From: an uncultured virus (IMG/VR IMGVR_UViG_3300001460_000019)
Lineage: Duplodnaviria; Heunggongvirae; Uroviricota; Caudoviricetes
Strand: one strand, 5' to 3'
Virus record (IMG/VR): IMGVR_UViG_3300001460_000019
Coordinates: 55,416-75,415 of that record
DNA length: 20,000 nucleotides
Shown here piece after piece: positions 4,721 through 15,029 of the stretch. The position numbers and the translations under genes were made by a program. The notes under the pieces were generated by a model. That model ran no database searches. It was not told the DNA's origin and saw only the letters and a list, made by a program, of their open reading frames with translations. Position 1 is the first letter of the stretch; the number at the start of each line of letters is the position of its first letter.

Positions 4721-4794
4721 TGCAGTGTAGTGTAGTGGTAACACGTTAGTCTCAGTAGCTAGAGTTATGAGTTCAATTCTCATCACTGCTACCA
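4721..4794 (+). tRNA. atypical tRNA, anticodon CAG (nominally Leu), encoded CCA
   Basis: Cloverleaf: acceptor TGCAGTG/CACTGCT + ACCA; D stem GTGT/ACAC with AGTGGTA loop; anticodon stem TTAGT/GCTAG with loop CTCAGTA; 4-nt variable loop; T stem ATGAG/CTCAT with TTCAATT loop. Confidence 0.85.
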
Positions 4795-4966: not shown

Positions 4967-6175
4967 TTATACTCTACTATTAATTTTATTATATATTGTA
5001 CACATGTCTTTCGCTGAATAGTTTCTAATATGATCATAGTAGGATAAAAAGTTTTTTGTGTCTTTCCATGTTAAATGACTGTTTGCTTTTTCTATAATGC
5101 TTGTAAAACTTTTTACTTGCGGATATGTTTCAATGTAAGGTTGACATTCTTTTATTATTTGTGTTCTTATTTCTTTTGGAACAATACCAATATTAAGTGC
5201 TTCAGGCCACATAACTAGTACCGGTGAAAATTTAGTAAAGTTATATTCTTTACCATATTTTAATAAGTCTGGCAATTGATCTAAATTTAATAATTGTATT
5301 GCTGACGTTAGTGTTGACTTAATATTACTATATTGTTTAATAGTTTCATTAAATGATTGCTGTATTTGTTTTGTCTTTTCCCATTTACCAGGCCATCTAA
5401 TATATTCAAATGTACTACCTATACCATCTGTAGACCAGTTTATATCTACAAGTTTAAACTTACTAAAAATAGGTATCCATTTAGTTACATCAGTTGTGCC
5501 ATTTGTAACAATAATAACTTCTATGTTTTTAGCATATGATGTTTGTGAAAGTTTTTGTATAAATTCTTTAAACCCATCTAATAATGTTGGTTCGCCACCT
5601 GTAAACTTTAATCTTAGTAAGTTTGGTGCCTGCTCTAATAACTCTTGTAAGTTATTTCTATCAAAGTCATTGTCTTCACCGGTTGATACTATTAATTCTT
5701 TTAGATCATTAGGCACAGGGTATTTTTGCTTTTCTTTTGTATGTAAGGAAGAACTATGTCCATCACACATTACACACGCAAGATTACATTTGTTACCAAA
5801 CTTTAGATCTAAAGTTCTAAGTGTTAAGCCACCTTGTTCTTTTATTTTTTGTACCGTTCCCGGAAATTTATTTTCTATTTCAATTGATTGATTAAGTCTT
5901 TTACTTAATGAATATGCTCCGTCTTTTTCATATTGATAACACCTACGACATTCTTTAATAGGTTTGTTACTTAACATTTTTTCTCTTATATTATTTAGAA
6001 CGTTATTATTTTTCCATGTATCAATTATTTGATTATTGTACATGTCTGAATCTATTGTATCTGAAAAACAACACAATTGCCCGTGTCCTTGTGCTGTATT
6101 ACATATTTCTGTAAAAGGCAACACACAAAAAGAATTACCGTGTTCTTTAATAAACTTTTGATAGTCTTTATGCAT
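4967..6175 (-). CDS. radical SAM protein with N-terminal twitch/SPASM-like Cys domain
   Basis: CNLACVMC (CxxxCxxC), FTGGEP, VTNGT and STDG motifs; N-terminal CVLPF...LCC...CRRC auxiliary Fe-S motif. Confidence 0.9.
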   Translation of the reverse strand: MHKDYQKFIKEHGNSFCVLPFTEICNTAQGHGQLCCFSDTIDSDMYNNQIIDTWKNNNVLNNIREKMLSNKPIKECRRCYQYEKDGAYSLSKRLNQSIEIENKFPGTVQKIKEQGGLTLRTLDLKFGNKCNLACVMCDGHSSSLHTKEKQKYPVPNDLKELIVSTGEDNDFDRNNLQELLEQAPNLLRLKFTGGEPTLLDGFKEFIQKLSQTSYAKNIEVIIVTNGTTDVTKWIPIFSKFKLVDINWSTDGIGSTFEYIRWPGKWEKTKQIQQSFNETIKQYSNIKSTLTSAIQLLNLDQLPDLLKYGKEYNFTKFSPVLVMWPEALNIGIVPKEIRTQIIKECQPYIETYPQVKSFTSIIEKANSHLTWKDTKNFLSYYDHIRNYSAKDMCTIYNKINSRV

Positions 6176-7451
6176 TCAATGTACCACCTATTACAGGAGT
6201 AAGATTCTTTACTGATTTTTTAAACATTGCTTTAGTTATATCGTGATGCTGTGCTTTAGGTACGCACAAACCACAACCACAAACTTTGTTTGGACAAGTT
6301 ATCACTGGCATAGTTCCGGTAGCAAACTGTTTTTCTAGTTTGTTTATTATTTGATCACACTCAGTAATAGTTCCTATCTCTCCCTTCTTACCTCCAAAAT
6401 TTGCTCTGCATGTTTGATGATGTAATATTTTATTATACTCTTGTTCAATGTGTAGCCAATTCCAATTTATCATGCATGACCATTCTTTATATTCAGTTGA
6501 ACACGCAAATACAGATTTTTTCCAATCATTAGTATCTAGCTTTACATTGTCTTTCTTATATTGATCTTCATCTAGTGTATAAAAAGTTCTTTGCCCACAG
6601 CAAGGTCTTCCTAATGCTTTTCTTGTATTGACTTCTTTTGGTTTTGGTGATATTTCTTTTACTACTTTTGGTTTTTCTTTTAGAGTATGTACAACTTGTT
6701 TTTGTTGTTGTACTTTCTTTTGATCATCTTTATATTCATACTCTGCATCTTTATTTGCATCAGGCTTGTTTATTTTTTTGTTTTTATTTGTCCAATAGTT
6801 TCTAAACCATGCATGTTGTTCCGGAGTATATCGATGTACATACTTACTATCTTCATAGCTTTCACCAATGATACGAGGTACAAACTTTATATTATCGTCT
6901 GTAAACCTATCAACGAGCTTCATACATTCATCAAAGTATTCTGGTTTAGCATGTACCATCAAATTAACTTTATATTTGATTCCTGAGTTATGTAACTGAT
7001 ATATTCTTGCAACTACATTATCTTTTATCTTTTGTTTTGCTTCACAATGATAACTTACTGTAATAGAATCAACAGCTTCTATAAGTTTATCACAATACTT
7101 TTGGCTAAATGCTCCATTAGTAGTAACATCAACTAATACGTCTGGATCATTTTGTGCATGTATGTATTGACACATTTCTAAGAAGTTTGGATTGTTAGTT
7201 GGTTCCCCACCTGTAAAACCAATATTCCACTGTCTATCAAAAGTCATTTGTGATTGCATTAATTTTTTATACTCAAAAACAAATTTACTTGTTTTAATTA
7301 ATGTTTCTAAACTTGCATGTGAAGAAGTATTGTTGTGTCTATGTGCAGGACAATAGGTACAGTCGTAATTACATCTTAATCCTAAATCCCATGTAACTTC
7401 AAATGAATAAGGATTTTGTATATCGTTGTCTATTGCTATTACTTTGCCCAT
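6168..7451 (-). CDS. radical SAM protein with C-terminal Cys-rich extension
   Basis: CNYDCTYC, FTGGEP, TTNG, VSYH; Lys/Gln-rich linker, then PCC...C...C...C...CPNKVCGCGLC. Confidence 0.9.
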   Translation of the reverse strand: MGKVIAIDNDIQNPYSFEVTWDLGLRCNYDCTYCPAHRHNNTSSHASLETLIKTSKFVFEYKKLMQSQMTFDRQWNIGFTGGEPTNNPNFLEMCQYIHAQNDPDVLVDVTTNGAFSQKYCDKLIEAVDSITVSYHCEAKQKIKDNVVARIYQLHNSGIKYKVNLMVHAKPEYFDECMKLVDRFTDDNIKFVPRIIGESYEDSKYVHRYTPEQHAWFRNYWTNKNKKINKPDANKDAEYEYKDDQKKVQQQKQVVHTLKEKPKVVKEISPKPKEVNTRKALGRPCCGQRTFYTLDEDQYKKDNVKLDTNDWKKSVFACSTEYKEWSCMINWNWLHIEQEYNKILHHQTCRANFGGKKGEIGTITECDQIINKLEKQFATGTMPVITCPNKVCGCGLCVPKAQHHDITKAMFKKSVKNLTPVIGGTLNA

Positions 7452-8587
7452 GTTTCAATTTCTTTAAACCAAGATTCAAATTCTGGTCTTATGTTTAGTA
7501 TGTTTGTGTTTCTCACTTTATCAAGTGCATTAATCCAGTTATAAAATTTATGTTGTAATTGTTTTTCTTTTTTAAAACCTGATTGTGGAATTTTAATATC
7601 TTTATTTGTTTCTAACATAGAGTCTGGCAATACCGATCTTACATCTAAGTGTCTTGGAGTATATACATAGTTTACATTATGATATACATTATCAAGGTTT
7701 TGTTCTTTAATCCATTTTTTAGCTAGTTTAGATTGATCATACGTTGTACAATGTATTGTGTCTACTATACTTAATCTTGATGCTACTTTAGATAGTTGTT
7801 TGATATTTTCTTTTATTGTTTCTAAAGTATATATGCCTCCTCTTGAATATTGATAGACATCTTGTTCCCAAGCATCAACACTACATAATAGGTCAACGTT
7901 TTTAAACTTTCTTAAAATAGTATCAATATTTTTATTATATAATGTAAGATTAGTAATGATTGAAAGATTAATACTACTTCTTCCTATACTTAATAGAAAC
8001 TCTAAAAATTCAAATAGCATAGGTTCATAAAAAGGTTCCCCGCCTGATATTTCAACTTTGGTTACTGACTCCCACCATTGTTTACTATTTCTTAACCACC
8101 ACTTGTCTGGTAACTTATCATATGAACTTATTGCTTTTTTAGGAAACATACCAAGTTCAGAAAGTTTTTGCTCGTCTTTTACCCAACCGGTTGATCTTTT
8201 ACTATTACACATTACGCATTTTAAATTACATTTGTTTGAAAAGTCAATTTTTAAAAAGAAAGGATTGTTATTCTGTTTTCCATGAGCTCCAATTACTGGA
8301 TTAGAAAAGTGATTAATTTTATGTCTAACTGATCTAGATCTTTTATTTTCTGTTGTTGTTGCACTGTCTTGAGAAAGACACTGGTCGCATCTACCTTTAG
8401 GTAACGGACCGTTAGCTAATGGCTCAATTGCTTTAATGAATTCCGAAGACTGCATCTTTTTTAGAAAGTCTCCGTCCTTGTCTAGGTTAAATTCCATTGG
8501 TTCACCTAAGGCACAACATGGTGTTATTTTCCTGTCATGTCTAAGCCATATATGAGACGTTCCTGCGTTACACCATTTTTTTGTCAT
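7439..8587 (-). CDS. radical SAM protein with N-terminal twitch/SPASM-like Cys domain
   Basis: CNLKCVMC, ISGGEPF, ITN, SVD; N-terminal WC...PCC...CDQC; same architecture as 4967-6175. Confidence 0.9.
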   Translation of the reverse strand: MTKKWCNAGTSHIWLRHDRKITPCCALGEPMEFNLDKDGDFLKKMQSSEFIKAIEPLANGPLPKGRCDQCLSQDSATTTENKRSRSVRHKINHFSNPVIGAHGKQNNNPFFLKIDFSNKCNLKCVMCNSKRSTGWVKDEQKLSELGMFPKKAISSYDKLPDKWWLRNSKQWWESVTKVEISGGEPFYEPMLFEFLEFLLSIGRSSINLSIITNLTLYNKNIDTILRKFKNVDLLCSVDAWEQDVYQYSRGGIYTLETIKENIKQLSKVASRLSIVDTIHCTTYDQSKLAKKWIKEQNLDNVYHNVNYVYTPRHLDVRSVLPDSMLETNKDIKIPQSGFKKEKQLQHKFYNWINALDKVRNTNILNIRPEFESWFKEIETWAK

Positions 8588-8627
8588 AGTTTTTCTCTAG
8601 TATTGATATATCTATACGTAAATGTAT

Positions 8628-9224
8628 TTATTTGCTGTTTTTGTACGTCTGTGTAACGTAATCGTAGATGTCTTTCCAGTTAGCAACCTGGTGTACATTT
8701 TTATTTGCGTAGTGAATATTGTAAGCATGTTTCATTAGTACAGGCTTTAATCCAACCTTTAATGCGTCTTCTAAGTTAGAAATTCTATCGTCAATGTATA
8801 TTAATCCGCTGTTTTCAAAGTCCATCATAGCATCTAGTTTAGGTGCGCCAGCTGGTAAACATCTTACATCAACAAATACATCAGTGTCAAAGTAATCTTC
8901 AATGTTTAGGTAACGATAATATTGTGCAATCGGTTTATCACTTAATGATGTAATAGCAATAAAATGATAACCTTCTTCGTGTAGCTTCTTAATATATTCT
9001 TCAGACTGTCTCATTGGTTCTAAAACAGAACAAGCCATAGAGGCATTGAACTCTTCTCTTTTCACAGTAGCTTCTTGTAAAGAAATACCAAACTCGTTTT
9101 GTATTTCTGCGTCATGATGTATAACTCCTGTAGAAGAATAGCCTTGCAATTCCATCCACTTTACGAATGCTGTATGCCAATCAAAGACAACTCCATCAAT
9201 ATCTGTTAAAATTATTTTGTCCAC
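8628..9224 (-). CDS. HAD-superfamily phosphatase (5'(3')-deoxyribonucleotidase-like)
   Basis: Motif I ILTDIDGV, motif II AITS, motif IV YIDDR..N, C-terminal HAYN...V.NW..I as in phage 5'-nucleotidases. Confidence 0.85.
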   Translation of the reverse strand: MDKIILTDIDGVVFDWHTAFVKWMELQGYSSTGVIHHDAEIQNEFGISLQEATVKREEFNASMACSVLEPMRQSEEYIKKLHEEGYHFIAITSLSDKPIAQYYRYLNIEDYFDTDVFVDVRCLPAGAPKLDAMMDFENSGLIYIDDRISNLEDALKVGLKPVLMKHAYNIHYANKNVHQVANWKDIYDYVTQTYKNSK

Positions 9225-9377
9225 TCTGCTCTCCCATTATTTGTAGATTGCTCAACCTACATATATATTTACTGTAATTTAGTAGTAGTCAAACATACCA
9301 CTTTAATTAATAAACTTCTGTTAATGGATTCTTGCACTAGTTTTAATAATAAATATGTAAAAGTAAAAAGGTAAAAA

Positions 9378-10037
9378 ATGATTGTAGAAACATCACAAGA
9401 TACAATAGAAATAAACGTTGATTCAAACAAAAGAAACATTGGTATAAAGTTGAGCGGTGGACTAGATTCATCCATTGTAGCCTATCTAATTTGCTTGTAC
9501 ATACGTGATCATCGACCAGACTGTACCATTGTACCATTTACAGTCATACATGGTTTAAAACCTCATAATATATGGTATGCTTCTAAAGTTAAATGGTGGT
9601 TAAAAAGAGAGTTCCCTAATGTTAGATGGCATAAAGAACATTTTACAATACATTCAGACGGTAGTGATTATAACGAACGTATGGAAGAACTACAAAGTAT
9701 CTTAACTAAAAACAAAATTATAGATTGTAAGTTTAGTGGTGTTACAGCTAACCCTCCAATAGAAGTTTATAAACAGTGGTCACCTGATGACCCAAATGAC
9801 GAACCATCTCCAGGTCGTGATAAAGAACAGAAAAGAAAAGACACAGCACATGGAAGAATACTTGTTAATATTGATAAGAAAGGTGTTGCAGAACTTTATA
9901 AGAAGTATAACTTAATGGACACTTTATTTAATGTAACAAGGACATGTGAGGAAACAGAATTAGATCCTTCAATTACTCCGCATTGTGGTAAATGCTGGTG
10001 GTGTGAAGAAAGACTATGGGGCTTTGGTAAACTGTAA
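9378..10037 (+). CDS. QueC-like PP-loop ATPase (7-cyano-7-deazaguanine synthase-like, divergent)
   Basis: PP-loop LSGGLDS near the N-terminus; C-terminal TRTCE...HCGKCWWCEER Zn-binding motif of the QueC family. Confidence 0.75.
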   Translation: MIVETSQDTIEINVDSNKRNIGIKLSGGLDSSIVAYLICLYIRDHRPDCTIVPFTVIHGLKPHNIWYASKVKWWLKREFPNVRWHKEHFTIHSDGSDYNERMEELQSILTKNKIIDCKFSGVTANPPIEVYKQWSPDDPNDEPSPGRDKEQKRKDTAHGRILVNIDKKGVAELYKKYNLMDTLFNVTRTCEETELDPSITPHCGKCWWCEERLWGFGKL

Positions 10038-10417
10038 ATCTTTTTTGAATTAAAACTCTATATATAGAGTTCTAAGATGTTTTTATGTAGCCTACAAGGC
10101 GATAACTATTATTACTTGAGTAACAACAAAGACGAGGCATATAGCATAAGCTAACAGACGCCGTAGATGTACTTTGTTTATTGAATAAACTTTGTTTATT
10201 CGTTTAGGTTATGTTTGGTAGTAAGCAACCCAAGAGCACTGCAAGGCAGTCAGGTTTAAAAAGGCTTTTAAATTTAAGCTACCGTTATAAACAATAATAA
10301 CCTTAGAAGACTTTAGGTCTTCATTTGTGAAAAAATGTTTTTGATTTTTTCCCCGGCTGATGCTTAATGCATCCTAAGTCCGGGGTTTATGCATTCTAGC
10401 ACTCCATAAATAGTTAT

Positions 10418-11518
10418 ATGTCTTGGGCACTTAAAACAGATCAAATTACACGTTTACAAATAGAGCTTACAAATTATTGTAATGCTGGTTGTCCTCATTG
10501 TGCAAGAGTAAACTATTTAAATTCAGATTGGCTTAAAGGATACAAACAAGAATCACCATACCCAGTCAGCATAAATTCAACACATTTAAATATAGACAGA
10601 TACAAAAAAATGATTACAAATGATAAATGGGAAAGTCTACGTGAAATACACTATTGTGGAAACTATGACGAACCAACTGTACATCCAAAAATTATGCAAT
10701 TTATTGATTATACTGTAGAATATCTACCACAAGCAAAGTCTATTAGTATTGCTACCAACGGTGGTACTAGAGATAGAGAATGGTGGAAACAATTAGGAGA
10801 AAAAAGCAATCAATTAAAACAAAAAAATATTGATTTAAGAGTTGTATGGGGTATAGATGGCCTAGAAGATACAAATCATATCTATCGCAAAGGTGTTAAT
10901 TGGAATAAATTAAAAGAGAATTATACAGCATATAATCAAGCAGGTGGTAATTCAACATGGCAAATTATTGTATTTGATCATAATGAACATCAATTAAATG
11001 AAATTGAATCCAATTATAAAGCCTGGGGATTTAATTCTATTAAAATAATCAACAGCAACAGAAAAAATCCACAGATTAAAATTGATAAAAGCCCAAAGAA
11101 AAAATATATACAGCATGATACTAGCAATCAAATAAAAAATACACCAATTAATAAAAAAATACCACCATTTTCTATGCCCAAAACCACAGCAACAGTAAAA
11201 AAAGATACCATTTTTTGCAAGGCTTTAGAAAAAAATAGCATAATTAAACGAAGTCTTTTTATCACAGCACATGGATTTATTACTCCTTGCTGTTGGATGG
11301 GGACTGATCGTAGCCTCAAAGAAGGTGCTTCATCATTTTCACAAGGACTTGATCCAGAAATTCATTCAATTTATTCACAAGATTCAATAACAGATATATT
11401 AAATTCAAAGTATTTTTCTCAGCTACAGTCAGCATGGAACAATAGATCCTATATAACCTGTAATGAAAAATGTTCCACAGCACATAATCCTGATATAAAA
11501 AGCATAATTAAAAGGTAA
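10418..11518 (+). CDS. radical SAM/SPASM-twitch domain protein
   Basis: CNAGCPHC, G..DEP, ATNGG, GIDG; C-terminal C...G.ITPCC...C...C auxiliary cluster motif. Confidence 0.9.
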   Translation: MSWALKTDQITRLQIELTNYCNAGCPHCARVNYLNSDWLKGYKQESPYPVSINSTHLNIDRYKKMITNDKWESLREIHYCGNYDEPTVHPKIMQFIDYTVEYLPQAKSISIATNGGTRDREWWKQLGEKSNQLKQKNIDLRVVWGIDGLEDTNHIYRKGVNWNKLKENYTAYNQAGGNSTWQIIVFDHNEHQLNEIESNYKAWGFNSIKIINSNRKNPQIKIDKSPKKKYIQHDTSNQIKNTPINKKIPPFSMPKTTATVKKDTIFCKALEKNSIIKRSLFITAHGFITPCCWMGTDRSLKEGASSFSQGLDPEIHSIYSQDSITDILNSKYFSQLQSAWNNRSYITCNEKCSTAHNPDIKSIIKR

Positions 11519-12302: not shown

Positions 12303-12802
12303 ATCACACACTTGAACAATTAAATCAATTGGAAATGGACCTAGAGCCCAGCTACAGTCGATACGTCAGCTACTACGAACAAAACATCACACAGTACTAT
12401 AAGAATCTGCTGTATCAAGGTTGTGCATGGGCAAACGTAGCCACACACAGCATAGAAGCAGTTGATTGGAGTCGCTATCATACCAACAAATATCGCAGTA
12501 CCACAACAATGAAAACCCACACACAGATGCGTAACATACACAACACACACTATTGCGAGGATGTATATTGGGCACCCGCTTGTATACTCTACAGCACACA
12601 GCCACATGACGGTTTGGCACTGTTGGAGTACATGCCTGAGATAGAACAGTGGTTCGAACAGCACAGCATGAGTGTGAACAAGCCTTGGAAAATGGCCACA
12701 CTAGCAGGCTGTTGGATAGAACAAGGTCTCGGTAACAAGGATAAATTCACTGAATTATATCATAGATTCACAGGCTATGATCTCAAGGACGTTAGGTTCT
12801 AA
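12284..12802 (+). CDS. hypothetical protein (172 aa)
   Basis: Open frame overlapping the nitroreductase end and coupled to the next ORF by TAATG; no recognised motif. Confidence 0.6.
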   Translation: MYRDQIDHTLEQLNQLEMDLEPSYSRYVSYYEQNITQYYKNLLYQGCAWANVATHSIEAVDWSRYHTNKYRSTTTMKTHTQMRNIHNTHYCEDVYWAPACILYSTQPHDGLALLEYMPEIEQWFEQHSMSVNKPWKMATLAGCWIEQGLGNKDKFTELYHRFTGYDLKDVRF

Positions 12803-12990
12803 TGCACTACTGTTTCGTATACGCATACAAAGGCAATATCGTATTAGAAGAATTCTGTGCATACTCAACAAAGAAGCTGATACAAGAACGATTCGACGAA
12901 CTACTAGGTGAAGATTACGACTGTATAGTAATAGACGATATCACAAAAGAACAGTACGAAGCACAGCATAACCCATTTGGCATAAGCTAG
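12802..12990 (+). CDS. hypothetical protein (62 aa)
   Basis: TAATG translational coupling to the preceding ORF; plausible composition. Confidence 0.6.
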   Translation: MHYCFVYAYKGNIVLEEFCAYSTKKLIQERFDELLGEDYDCIVIDDITKEQYEAQHNPFGIS

Positions 12991-13340
12991 TAGCACACAT
13001 ACACACACTTGATCACTACACTATTAGTCTAGAGTGACTGTAACACAGCATTAATGCATGACACACAGTGAAGCAATGTGGATTGTGCATATATCCTTTC
13101 AGTATGAACTAAAAAGAAAGCTATTTTACAGGTACCGTACGAAGCGATTTTGGGGTATAAACACTACACAGATTAGTCTGTTTTTGTATACACAATGTGG
13201 ATAGAAAGTTCCTACCCAAAAGGTAAAACCGTGTCTCTCATTACCCGTATCTGAAGACGATAAAACCAATTTACCTACGCTATAACCATGGCCTCTTAAC
13301 CATTATCAACCGTGTAACCACCATTGATCATCGCTTCCTG

Positions 13341-13489
13341 ATAGTGGGGCAATCAGCTGTTGCTGTCTGAAATAGATCATTCTGATCTAGCCTCCGGCTT
13401 CATATGTGCTCTTGTGCGTATCGTAAACTCATACGCACGGCGTAGCACATACGATTGGGCCCCTGATCAATTGCCCCTATACTCACTAT
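13341..13489 (+). other. multibranch stem-loop element (candidate ncRNA or ssDNA structure)
   Basis: Closing stem GGGGCAAT (13346-13353)/ATTGCCCC (13470-13477) enclosing TAGATCA-TTC-TGATCTA, AGCC-TCC-GGCT and a long hairpin at 13403-13451. Confidence 0.5.
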
Positions 13490-13507
13490 ATACGCTGTAA
13501 CCACTAT

Positions 13508-13550
13508 GACCCCGCTGTAGGGGTTGGCTATACCTGGGACCCCGCTGTAG
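13508..13550 (+). repeat. 13-bp direct repeat GACCCCGCTGTAG x2
   Basis: Exact copies at 13508-13520 and 13538-13550. Confidence 0.85.
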
Positions 13551-13571
13551 CTTATACGGGGTTTGAGGCCA

Positions 13572-13688
13572 CCACAACATGTAGTCATGATTAAATGACC
13601 CCATTTAATTTGGCCACCACTATATCTAGTCTTGAGCATGCGGTCTATGCCTCATGGGCAGTGCTGTGGCCATCACTATATGTAGTAG
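13572..13688. promoter_or_regulatory. three NrdR-box-like palindromes, each preceded by GGCCA
   Basis: CCACAACATGTAGTCA (13572-13587), CCACTATATCTAGTCT (13617-13632), TCACTATATGTAGTAG (13673-13688); all match the core of the NrdR consensus acaCwAtATaTwGtgt. Confidence 0.7.
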
Positions 13689-13702
13689 AGGCCTCTTTGG
13701 GG

Positions 13703-13731
13703 TTGACAGTTGGCCTATATGAGTATATACT
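13703..13731 (+). promoter_or_regulatory. sigma70-type promoter with no downstream protein gene
   Basis: TTGACA (13703-13708), 17 bp, TATACT (13726-13731). Confidence 0.7.
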
Positions 13732-13888
13732 AGTAAATAACAATACATGGGTGGCCTTTACGGCGGGCATCGATCACTGCACGTANACAACCAAGTACCC
13801 AGAACATCGGTGTGCGATCAGTTGCATATTTGGGAACACTCCGTATAGAGCCCCGAGAGTCTGAGATTAAGTTCTCTGGAGTACGATC

Positions 13889-14003
13889 GGTTCAAAGGGT
13901 TCAAAGACACTGTAGGGCTTCAATGACTTCAATGCATCAATGAGACGTCAATGGGGCTCAAAGGCTTCAAGGGGTTCATTGGGACTTCAAAGAGGTTCAA
14001 AGG
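13889..14003 (+). repeat. degenerate tandem repeat, approximate unit GG(T/C)TCAA(A/T)G, about 11 units
   Basis: TCAA/TCAT cores at 13892, 13901, 13920, 13929, 13937, 13948, 13958, 13967, 13976, 13987, 13997. Confidence 0.8.
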
Positions 14004-14074
14004 TGGCGAACGGAGAGTTTAGAATAGGTTCCAGAGACTCGGGACCTAGCTCAGAATTTAAGGATTTTGAGAGG

Positions 14075-14166
14075 TGTTGCAGAAATGCAACAACTAGTCT
14101 AAAAGTGTTGCACAAAAACAACAAACAGCACATGAGAGATCGAGGGGGTGTTGCGTAAAAACAACA
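14075..14166. promoter_or_regulatory. three 18-bp TGTTG-N8-CAACA (TGT-N12-ACA) palindromic operators
   Basis: TGTTGCAGAAATGCAACA (14075), TGTTGCACAAAAACAACA (14106), TGTTGCGTAAAAACAACA (14149). Confidence 0.7.
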
Positions 14167-14211
14167 CCCTACTTAATGGTACTACAGTGTGTGCCATATC
14201 GATACAGCACG

Positions 14212-14304
14212 ACACAACATCTAGTAGATAAAAAGACTAATAATTTCAATGGTTTAACCGTGAAGAACAGACTAACTGCTGTTGTGGTTCACTAGATATA
14301 GTCG
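14212..14304. promoter_or_regulatory. two further NrdR-box-like palindromes
   Basis: ACACAACATCTAGTAG (14212-14227) and TCACTAGATATAGTCG (14289-14304); weaker GGACTATATAATGTGC at 14310-14325. Confidence 0.65.
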
Positions 14305-14446
14305 ATGGGGGACTATATAATGTGCCATGGTATTTAGGTCAGAGTTCGGCCCATCCTTTGAGTATCGATTTTATCTTTCTAGATTTATTTGGTTCTAGTT
14401 AATTACAACCGGCGGATAAAGTTTCTGTTCCCTTATCTTATTATTA

Positions 14447-14474
14447 ATAATAACATAGGTTCCTATTGTGTCAA
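14447..14474 (-). promoter_or_regulatory. leftward early-type promoter pointing into the non-coding region
   Basis: Minus strand reads TTGACA-caataggaaccta-TGT-TATTAT-taataat, the same architecture as the rightward early promoters. Confidence 0.7.
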
Positions 14475-14510
14475 CCAGAATAATTTAAATCTTTTTGGCC
14501 AATTAGGGGC

Positions 14511-14538
14511 TTGACACATTGCGTAATGGTGCTACTAT
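14511..14538 (+). promoter_or_regulatory. early promoter P1
   Basis: TTGACA, 16 bp ending TGC, TACTAT. Confidence 0.8.
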
Positions 14539-14562
14539 AAACATATGAACAAAGGAGCACAC

Positions 14563-14895
14563 ATGCAAATAAAAAACTTTAGAGTGGCTTACAGCGAATA
14601 TGACGTTACCTCTACGCTGTACCAAAAGAAAACTGCTGAGGAACTAGCACGTCAACTAGAAGAGGTTGCACCAACTCTAGAAACTGCCAAGTACTTTGTA
14701 CACCTGGCACAGTGGAACCTAAAAGATCACGGACATGTTGATGGTTTGGGAGATCCTTTATGCACACGCCTAAGTGGTGTAAAGAACACAGAGGACCTTG
14801 AGGGTCTGTTTATACACATGAAGGGTGAATGGCATTATTCCGATGATGGCATCTACTGGGAACCAACCAAGATAGAGTTTCCAAAAGCCGCGTAG
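14563..14895 (+). CDS. hypothetical early protein (110 aa from the RBS-supported start)
   Basis: AAGGAG lies before ATG 14563, making it a likelier start than 14545; directly behind P1. Confidence 0.75.
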   Translation: MQIKNFRVAYSEYDVTSTLYQKKTAEELARQLEEVAPTLETAKYFVHLAQWNLKDHGHVDGLGDPLCTRLSGVKNTEDLEGLFIHMKGEWHYSDDGIYWEPTKIEFPKAA

Positions 14896-14921
14896 TATAA
14901 CATCTTTTTGCAAACTGTCAA
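14894..14921 (-). promoter_or_regulatory. antisense promoter facing ORF 14563-14895
   Basis: Minus strand reads TTGACA-gtttgcaaaaaga-TGT-TATACT (16-bp spacer, extended -10). Confidence 0.65.
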
Positions 14922-14969
14922 GTGTAATGTTGGGGACAACATTACACTGTCCCCTATGCATTTACCCTC

Positions 14970-14997
14970 TTTACAATATGCACAATTGTGCTATATT
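14970..14997 (+). promoter_or_regulatory. early promoter P2
   Basis: TTTACA, 16 bp ending TGC, TATATT, then the shared AATAATATAACAAA leader. Confidence 0.7.
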
Positions 14998-15029
14998 AAT
15001 AATATAACAAAAGCAAAGGAACAACAATA

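Follow-up and report, generated by a model that had tools for sequence, protein, structure and literature searches.

NrdR-box-like sites at early promoters of marine jumbo phages and around a probable non-coding RNA gene

According to the sections of the published work drawn on here (PMC13584703, PMC12051234, PMC9110341, PMC12176259, PMC4667477), the bacterial regulator NrdR is presented as a repressor specific to the genes of ribonucleotide reductase (RNR), and its boxes coincide in part with the site of RNA polymerase or with the transcription start. The NrdR site is made up of two partially palindromic 16-bp boxes joined by a linker of 15–16 bp, with highly conserved positions C4, A6, A8, T9, T11 and G13 (PMC13584703, PMC12051234) and an AT content between C4 and G13 for which a lower limit of 63% is given (PMC13584703). 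When linkers of 12–27 bp were assayed, good binding was found only at 14–17/18 and 24–27 bp; with other linkers NrdR bound ~100-fold more weakly, and single boxes were unbound (PMC13584703, PMC12051234). Heterologous boxes are bound in vitro by the NrdR of distant bacteria, e.g. E. coli and S. coelicolor (PMC13584703), and EcoNrdR tolerates a change of the A6-to-T type in vitro. Here we describe six sequences of this kind in the final 20 kb of a contig from an uncultured virus of the Caudoviricetes (IMG/VR record IMGVR_UViG_3300001460_000019, positions 55,416 to 75,415; these 20,000 nucleotides are referred to below as the window). Judging from sequence comparison, we put it at about an even chance that they are NrdR-type operators that tie phage early transcription to deoxynucleoside triphosphate (dNTP) and energy status, as part of a regulon kept in a family of marine jumbo phages.

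Set against the operators of E. coli nrdAB, nrdHIEF and nrdDG and of S. coelicolor nrdAB and nrdRJ, the phage boxes have in common with them the 16-bp partial palindrome, the critical positions and the AT-rich core, and the pairs found in related phages have the 15–16 bp linker as well. They differ in controlling no RNR gene and in sitting upstream of the −35 hexamer, and the window differs further in its linkers (29, 40, 61 and 5 bp) and in the arrangement of its boxes as two triplets around an RNA gene. Two other kinds of system offer partial parallels. datA is a DnaA-binding titration locus, and the window resembles decoy loci of that type in presenting clustered sites for a putative host regulator without that regulator's usual target gene; the difference is that in related phages the boxes stand in register with promoters, and that in the window they flank promoters and an RNA gene. 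The lambda OL–OR, lac and gal operators cooperate by DNA looping, and the two box triplets may be likened to them in that they enclose a promoter and a transcript at a distance of ~540 bp, a layout kept in a syntenic locus of a relative. The triplet spacings in the window are not mirror images, however, and DNA loops of such a length are not known for NrdR.

Boxes in the window and in related phages

Five sites in the window match the pattern CACWAnATnTAGT exactly, all on the + strand (13573, 13618, 13674, 14213 and 14290), and a sixth, on the − strand at 14312–14324, departs from it at one position. These five are all of the exact matches in the 75,415-bp contig, and they fall within 13573–14302. 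With up to one mismatch allowed there are nine matches, as against a mean of 1.98 in dinucleotide shuffles (standard deviation 1.46, maximum 7), none of 200 of which reached nine. When 82 unique sites of related phages, but none of the window, were used to build a 20-bp weight matrix, seven matches of at least 8 bits were found in the contig: the six boxes and one stray (8.4 bits, window position 7753), while each of ten mononucleotide shuffles gave 0–3 matches. A preliminary description of this stretch, made from its letters alone, had listed the five exact sites and the one-mismatch site, had noted GGCCA before the first three, and had judged such recurrence very unlikely by chance. Pattern search and repeat-family analysis bear out the first two points, and the shuffles, together with the clustering of every exact match of the contig, bear out the third. 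Among viral contigs, the GGCCA-prefixed pattern turned up in three with a single site each, which we take to be chance.

As 16-mers, the boxes start at 13572, 13617, 13673, 14212, 14289 and 14310. Box 1, CCACAACATGTAGTCA (13572–13587, centre 13579), scores 13.8 bits, and box 2, CCACTATATCTAGTCT (13617–13632, centre 13624), 45 bp from it, scores 17.9 bits. Box 3, TCACTATATGTAGTAG (13673–13688, centre 13680; 13.0 bits), follows 56 bp from box 2 and ends the first group of three, 23 bp before the −35 hexamer of the promoter P1 described below. The second group, ~540 bp away, consists of box 4, ACACAACATCTAGTAG (14212–14227, centre 14219; 17.7 bits), box 5, TCACTAGATATAGTCG (14289–14304, centre 14296; 8.9 bits), which shares bases with the −35-like hexamer of a candidate promoter, and box 6, GGACTATATAATGTGC (14310–14325, centre 14317; 13.6 bits), which on the − strand reads GCACATTATATAGTCC. 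The centres are thus spaced by 45, 56, 539, 77 and 21 bp, with linkers of 29, 40, 523, 61 and 5 bp; the spacings of 45, 56 and 77 bp had been given correctly before, and the 21 bp between boxes 5 and 6 are to be added to them. Upstream of the boxes stands a direct repeat, GACCCCGCTGTAG, in two exact copies (13508–13520 and 13538–13550), which in the syntenic locus of a relative (L066, 5319–5375) amounts to ~2.7 copies with a 21-bp period.

Boxes 1–5 carry all six of the positions that are critical in published NrdR boxes, and box 6 carries five of the six, its one deviation being of the A6-to-T type. The AT content between C4 and G13 is 75–88% in boxes 1–5, above the published lower limit. Box 4 agrees at 15 of 16 positions with ACACAACATCTAGTGG, a synthetic consensus box derived from the sequence logo in the part of PMC13584703 drawn on here. 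In their sequence features, then, the boxes conform to an NrdR operator. The motifs of LexA, ArgR and sigma54 gave no fit.

The contig has a GC content of 0.34 and a CheckV completeness of 21%. Closer relatives are found among IMG/VR contigs of up to 364 kb, and one of these (G001; 328,149 bp, with direct terminal repeats and rated complete) contains L066. Two small proteins encoded to the right of the box region are distantly related to proteins of T4-like cyanomyoviruses and other marine phages; from these homologues and from the size of the relatives it follows that the window comes from a marine jumbo phage. The set of related loci used below comprises 140 that were fetched around two anchor genes; the 116-aa and 172-aa proteins flanking the gap, used as single queries, returned no related loci, and a blastn search of the gap against 50,697 GenBank phage records gave no match. 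The gap that bears the boxes (~12990–14545) measures 1.55 kb and has no credible genes, only short mechanical open reading frames (ORFs), and its alignment with the homologous gap of L066 contains many insertions and deletions that are not multiples of three. The box region is thereby confirmed as non-coding, as the preliminary description had it.

In 33 of the 140 related loci there are at least two boxes, and these define an extended consensus, a palindrome of 18–20 bp that reads tGGCACwAnATnTwGTGCCa. Among the 74 unique pairs of adjacent boxes within 200 bp, 44 are spaced 31–33 bp centre to centre, 24 are spaced 15–16 bp and only six lie at other distances. A centre distance of 31–32 bp amounts to a linker of 15–16 bp, and the 31–33 bp class therefore has the geometry of an NrdR site. 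We looked beside these canonical pairs for promoters of the pattern TTGAC-N17-19-TAnnnT. Half of the pairs (22 of 44) have a phased, strong promoter of the sigma70 type close to consensus (GGTTGAC, 16–17 bp, TG-n-TATAcT), always on the side of the gene, and it starts 19–20 bp after the centre of the proximal box in 17 pairs and 29–30 bp after it in five. A Shine-Dalgarno sequence and a start codon come after the boxed promoters. When 13 orthologous promoters are aligned, the boxes, GGTTGAC and TGTTAT are conserved and the linker is variable; four of the 13 have an insertion of 10–11 bp, by which helical phase is kept. The genes behind such promoters include small early genes of unknown function, a SleB-like hydrolase and DNA ligase, and in one locus (L037) a homologue of the window's first early ORF. 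Along with the critical positions, the 31–32 bp pairs of the relatives support the NrdR-box-like identity that had been proposed, and the conservation of the motif in syntenic regions of related phages, suggested at the time as a check, is now seen in related loci and in the layout of L066.

L066 is syntenic with the window (the anchor-gene proteins are 50% identical), and its box centres are spaced by 45, 55, 529, 33 and 85 bp. Each of the six window boxes has a positional homologue there with the critical positions kept, and upstream of box 4's homologue, at 33 bp, stands a partner box that the window lacks through a deletion. L066 has the better half-site (CCAC) of boxes 1–3 on the side opposite to that in the window. 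Such a flip argues for a symmetric site of protein binding rather than a directional promoter, and so bears on the proposal that a phage single-subunit RNA polymerase uses the sites as promoters, their core being CACTATA-like. The one point in its favour is that CACTATA resembles the cores of T7/SP6-type promoters. Besides being palindromic, however, the sites occur in both orientations and in pairs 31–32 bp apart, the genes downstream have promoters of the sigma70 type, and none of the window's ORFs is recognised as an RNA polymerase; orientation and pairing already contradict the proposal, to which we attach next to no probability.

The complete relative, at 328 kb, has four exact boxes, three of them in the syntenic gap and one in a second small cluster before a sigma70-type promoter, and a total of ~8–9 sites. 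Its 36 matches to the pattern with one mismatch compare with 28 for a reversed control and are mostly noise. In relatives a triple box, spaced 15 + 32 bp, marks the 5' end of a gene whose product is a very basic protein (L072, 4601–5095; L037, 2690–3208). This protein has the core GFRCxSGPRKGRIVAKPSTC, has neither a Pfam nor a PHROG family, and has distant homologues in G001 and in a further relative, G002.

Promoters and a candidate RNA gene between the triplets

Between the two groups of boxes, where the early gene cluster opens, lies a segment that probably encodes a structured phage non-coding RNA of ~283 nt on the + strand (13860–14142), a feature that the preliminary description did not have. 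The segment is represented in RNA libraries: three contigs from three runs of three studies match the window without a difference, namely X15 (283 nt, 13860–14142), X17 (199 nt, 13860–14058) and X18 (177 nt, 13828–14004). X15 and X17, from two studies, share the end at 13860, which weakly hints at an end of the RNA. Four runs gave no cover of 12900–13827 or 14143–14708, and we do not use this as evidence. A further record of X17 (record 8) joins 13904 to 14068 through 149 other letters in place of 13905–14067, and is probably a variant repeat array of a co-occurring relative.

Folding speaks for the + strand, at −80 kcal/mol (z −3.27, with none of 200 shuffles as good) as compared with a z of −1.28 for the − strand, and the homologue in L066 folds at a z of −4.06. 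The RNA contains ~12 tandem YTCAAWG units with a period of 9–10 bp (13889–14004) and two hairpins (14074–14093 and 14105–14124); a third, GGGTGTTG-loop-CAACACCC, read from the sequence on the + strand at 14146–14169, follows directly past the end of the RNA contig. All three GTTG...CAAC hairpins and the YTCAAWG repeats are conserved in L066, one hairpin with a compensatory change from C-G to T-A. In an alignment of the two RNA sequences 14 of 52 pairs are changed on both sides, a figure to which we give little weight because the repeat array makes the alignment ambiguous. A search of Rfam with 12500–15000, at E up to 1, returned only a chance microRNA match inside an ORF, and the RNA is accordingly described as without an Rfam family. 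CsrB and RsmZ are repeat-rich sponge RNAs with the motif GGA. The window's RNA is like them in being structured and in holding ~12 copies of a short motif, and differs from them in that the motif reads YUCAAWG. The only lead to an RNA partner is the complement of the motif, CCUUUGAG, in an invariant block 200 nt downstream.

The candidate promoter of this RNA is probably P1 (13703–13731, + strand), of the sigma70 type (TTGACA, 17 bp, TATACT; 11 of 12 consensus positions), whose counterpart in L066 reads TTGACT..TATATT. The window has a box-to-−35 offset of 23 bp, L066 one of 30 bp. A second promoter-like site, TTGCAT-16-TATAGA (13823–13850), would fit the end at 13860 and was dropped; it is not kept in L066, and X18 starts at 13828. 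The leader between P1 and the RNA includes an ambiguous base (N) at 13787; the contig's second N is at contig position 46875.

On the far side of the RNA, a candidate promoter on the + strand (14293–14321; TAGATA, 17 bp, TATAAT), scored by consensus match only at 10 of 12, has its hexamers inside boxes 5 and 6. Ten bases past box 6 starts a 33-bp block, GGTCAGAGTTCGGCCCAnCCTTTGAGTATCG (14336–14368), that is identical in the window and in seven other IMG/VR contigs (L157–L163). The block holds CCTTTGAG, the complement of the RNA repeat unit CTCAAAGG, and can form a hairpin of seven pairs, none of them covarying. Five of the eight contigs have a box 21 bp ahead of the block, and all eight have a strong leftward promoter 105–138 bp to its right. 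In the window the leftward promoter (14447–14474, − strand; TTGACA, 16 bp, TATTAT) is of the sigma70 type, matches at 11 of 12 positions with a TG, and reads toward the block and boxes 6–4. A rightward promoter (14511–14538, + strand; TTGACA, 16 bp, TACTAT), conserved in L066, is that of the first early ORF (14545–14895, + strand), whose 116-aa product belongs to no known family and whose homologue also comes after the gap in L066.

Repeats, hairpins and promoters could also be read as the parts of a replication origin, with the YTCAAWG units as iterons, P1 as the source of a transcript that activates the origin, and the boxes as a gate that makes initiation depend on dNTP status. The array with its 9–10 bp period, the hairpins, the divergent promoters and a local GC content of 0.46–0.49 against 0.34 for the contig are all in keeping with this. 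On the other hand, the GC skew of the contig tracks gene strand without an inflection at the gap, and none of the nearby genes was recognised as an initiator. RNA libraries contain the repeat segment as a discrete RNA, its fold is better than that of shuffles, and in relatives the canonical boxes stand at ordinary gene promoters. We regard an origin at this site as very improbable.

The contig also has genes for tail-fibre-like, PhoH and many radical-SAM and 2OG-oxygenase-like proteins, as well as small early-type genes. A tRNA-Leu(CAG) gene (4721–4794) adjoins a cluster (4967–11518) of four radical-SAM-like genes, a QueC-like gene and a phrog_420 hydrolase-like gene. Inspection of translations by eye suggests TonB-dependent-receptor-like, desaturase-like, carbamoyltransferase-like and many 2OG-oxygenase-like genes elsewhere on the contig.

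What might bind the boxes

By profile, the 75-kb contig, which is ~21% of a genome, has no match to NrdR (TIGR00244), to the RNR large subunit (PF02867) or to the ATP-cone (PF03477), in line with the earlier remark that no nrd or nrdR gene lies in the window. Among ten records of relatives, one of them complete, none has an NrdR above the family cut-off; the same search found NrdR in 10–12 of 14 reference genomes, and in nine of these the match exceeded the cut-off. An nrdA with an ATP-cone is present in four of five relatives (e.g. G001:C1:256731-258905, with equivalents in G002–G004).

These results bear on the leading idea of the preliminary description, that the boxes act as a decoy, titrating host NrdR as the phage DNA replicates and so derepressing host RNR and raising dNTPs; on this reading they would control no promoter. 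A contig without an nrd gene and six sites clustered in non-coding DNA are what such a sponge would look like, and its copy number would climb with replication. The relatives, however, hold their box pairs in a fixed helical register just upstream of early promoters, which argues for regulation in cis and not for a free-standing sponge. The window's boxes, too, flank P1, the candidate promoter, the leftward promoter and the RNA gene and thus are not uncoupled from transcription. Spacings like those of the window are bound poorly by NrdR in vitro and would therefore make a poor sponge, and ~8–9 sites in the 328 kb of the complete relative are few. Since relatives encode an ATP-cone nrdA of their own, host RNR would also be less needed. 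The decoy is left unsupported by these findings and seems to us quite unlikely. The alternative offered alongside it, that NrdR serves as a sensor acting on the promoters at 13703 and 14474, has fared better than the decoy.

Tandem boxes are not confined to these phages. In a loose scan of IMG/VR, in which the first box was sought as TAGTG only, at least 120 stretches were returned and 80 fetched; in 47 of the 80 a complete first box is present at 30–33 bp, in contigs whose GC content ranges from 0.28 to 0.61. Such a spread fits a universal host factor. In five records of unrelated phages or prophages that carry well-spaced tandem boxes (L284–L288), four of them at least 95% complete, no class I or class II RNR was found, class III (PF13597) not having been searched. 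The tandem boxes of L285 (2239/2306) adjoin genes for a Cro/CI-like regulator and an excisionase, and those of L287 (2154/2186) adjoin a gene for a late transcriptional activator.

The same scan weighs on the proposal that the boxes are operators of a phage-encoded or other non-NrdR protein, the leading candidate being the very basic protein as an autoregulated repressor with three operators. Triple boxes at the 5' end of its gene in relatives, and its distant homologues in the complete relative and in G002, would be expected of such a protein, and the position of boxes upstream of the −35 hexamer, unlike bacterial NrdR sites, and the non-canonical spacings in the window are more easily accommodated by it. 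Yet a private phage factor would not explain the tandem motif in unrelated viral contigs of such different GC content (47 of 80 fetched among at least 120), and the 15/16 match to the published NrdR consensus and the 31–32 bp pair spacing also speak against it. The basic protein, furthermore, has no assignment to a DNA-binding family, and no homologue of it was found in the 75-kb contig. We consider a binder other than NrdR unlikely, if clearly worth keeping in view.

Several observations weigh against the boxes being NrdR operators. One concerns the linkers: those of adjacent pairs in the window all fall outside the lengths known to serve NrdR, whether 15–16 bp or the tolerated 14–17/18 and 24–27 bp. 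Location is a second difficulty. There is no RNR gene on the contig, and boxes 1–3 lie 23–124 bp upstream of the P1 −35, as the relatives' pairs lie upstream of the −35 of their own promoters, unlike bacterial NrdR boxes; the only overlap with a promoter in the window is that of boxes 5 and 6, on the weak candidate promoter. The offset of 23 bp at P1 also falls outside the relatives' series of 19–20 and 29–30 bp. The linkers, the location of boxes 1–3 and this offset are serious objections where the window itself is concerned. No box was found within 1.5 kb of the phage nrdA in four relatives, or in the ~7.5 kb upstream of it in three, so that the phage's own reductase seems to escape the control that the early promoters bear. 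The very basic protein behind the relatives' triple box could be the real binder, and NrdR is only presumed to be present in the host. NrdR might also be phage-borne, given that 79% of the phage genome lies outside the contig searched for nrdR, and that one table row of PMC8790148 lists a marine phage ORF similar to a protein annotated NrdR. With regard to the RNA, library contigs reveal neither strand nor level, and DNA may be present in RNA libraries.

Proposed regulation and its meaning for infection

If the boxes are NrdR-type operators, a rise in dATP or a fall in energy charge would lead tetramers of host NrdR, in the dATP/ATP or the ADP form, to bind them. Bound NrdR would bend the DNA and lower transcription from the adjacent promoters, with the result that the early genes and the RNA would be on at low dATP relative to ATP and off once dNTP pools rise or energy drops. 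Any titration of NrdR through the replication of phage DNA would count as a side effect at most. The window, with its unusual linkers, might depend on some other cooperation between the two triplets, the boldest version being a loop over ~540 bp; otherwise binding there would be weak.

A wider version of this reading is that host NrdR has been co-opted as a dNTP/energy switch for the early transcription of jumbo phages, that operator triplets ~540 bp apart clamp the gene for the ~283-nt RNA, possibly by looping, and that the strategy is a general one among phages, as the boxed phage and prophage records without a class I or II RNR may suggest. We offer it tentatively, as possible and still somewhat doubtful. 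In the full-text literature searched, which excluded subscription journals and supplements, no paper was found to describe NrdR boxes at phage promoters other than those of nrd genes.

A probable repeat-rich phage RNA has been brought to light alongside the boxes. Should the regulation proposed here prove true, a host sensor of dATP and ATP would be an input to the timing of infection. It might act as a timer that closes the early genes as dNTP pools rise, and possibly also as a brake on infection in energy-poor cells, which would be relevant to slow-growing marine hosts.

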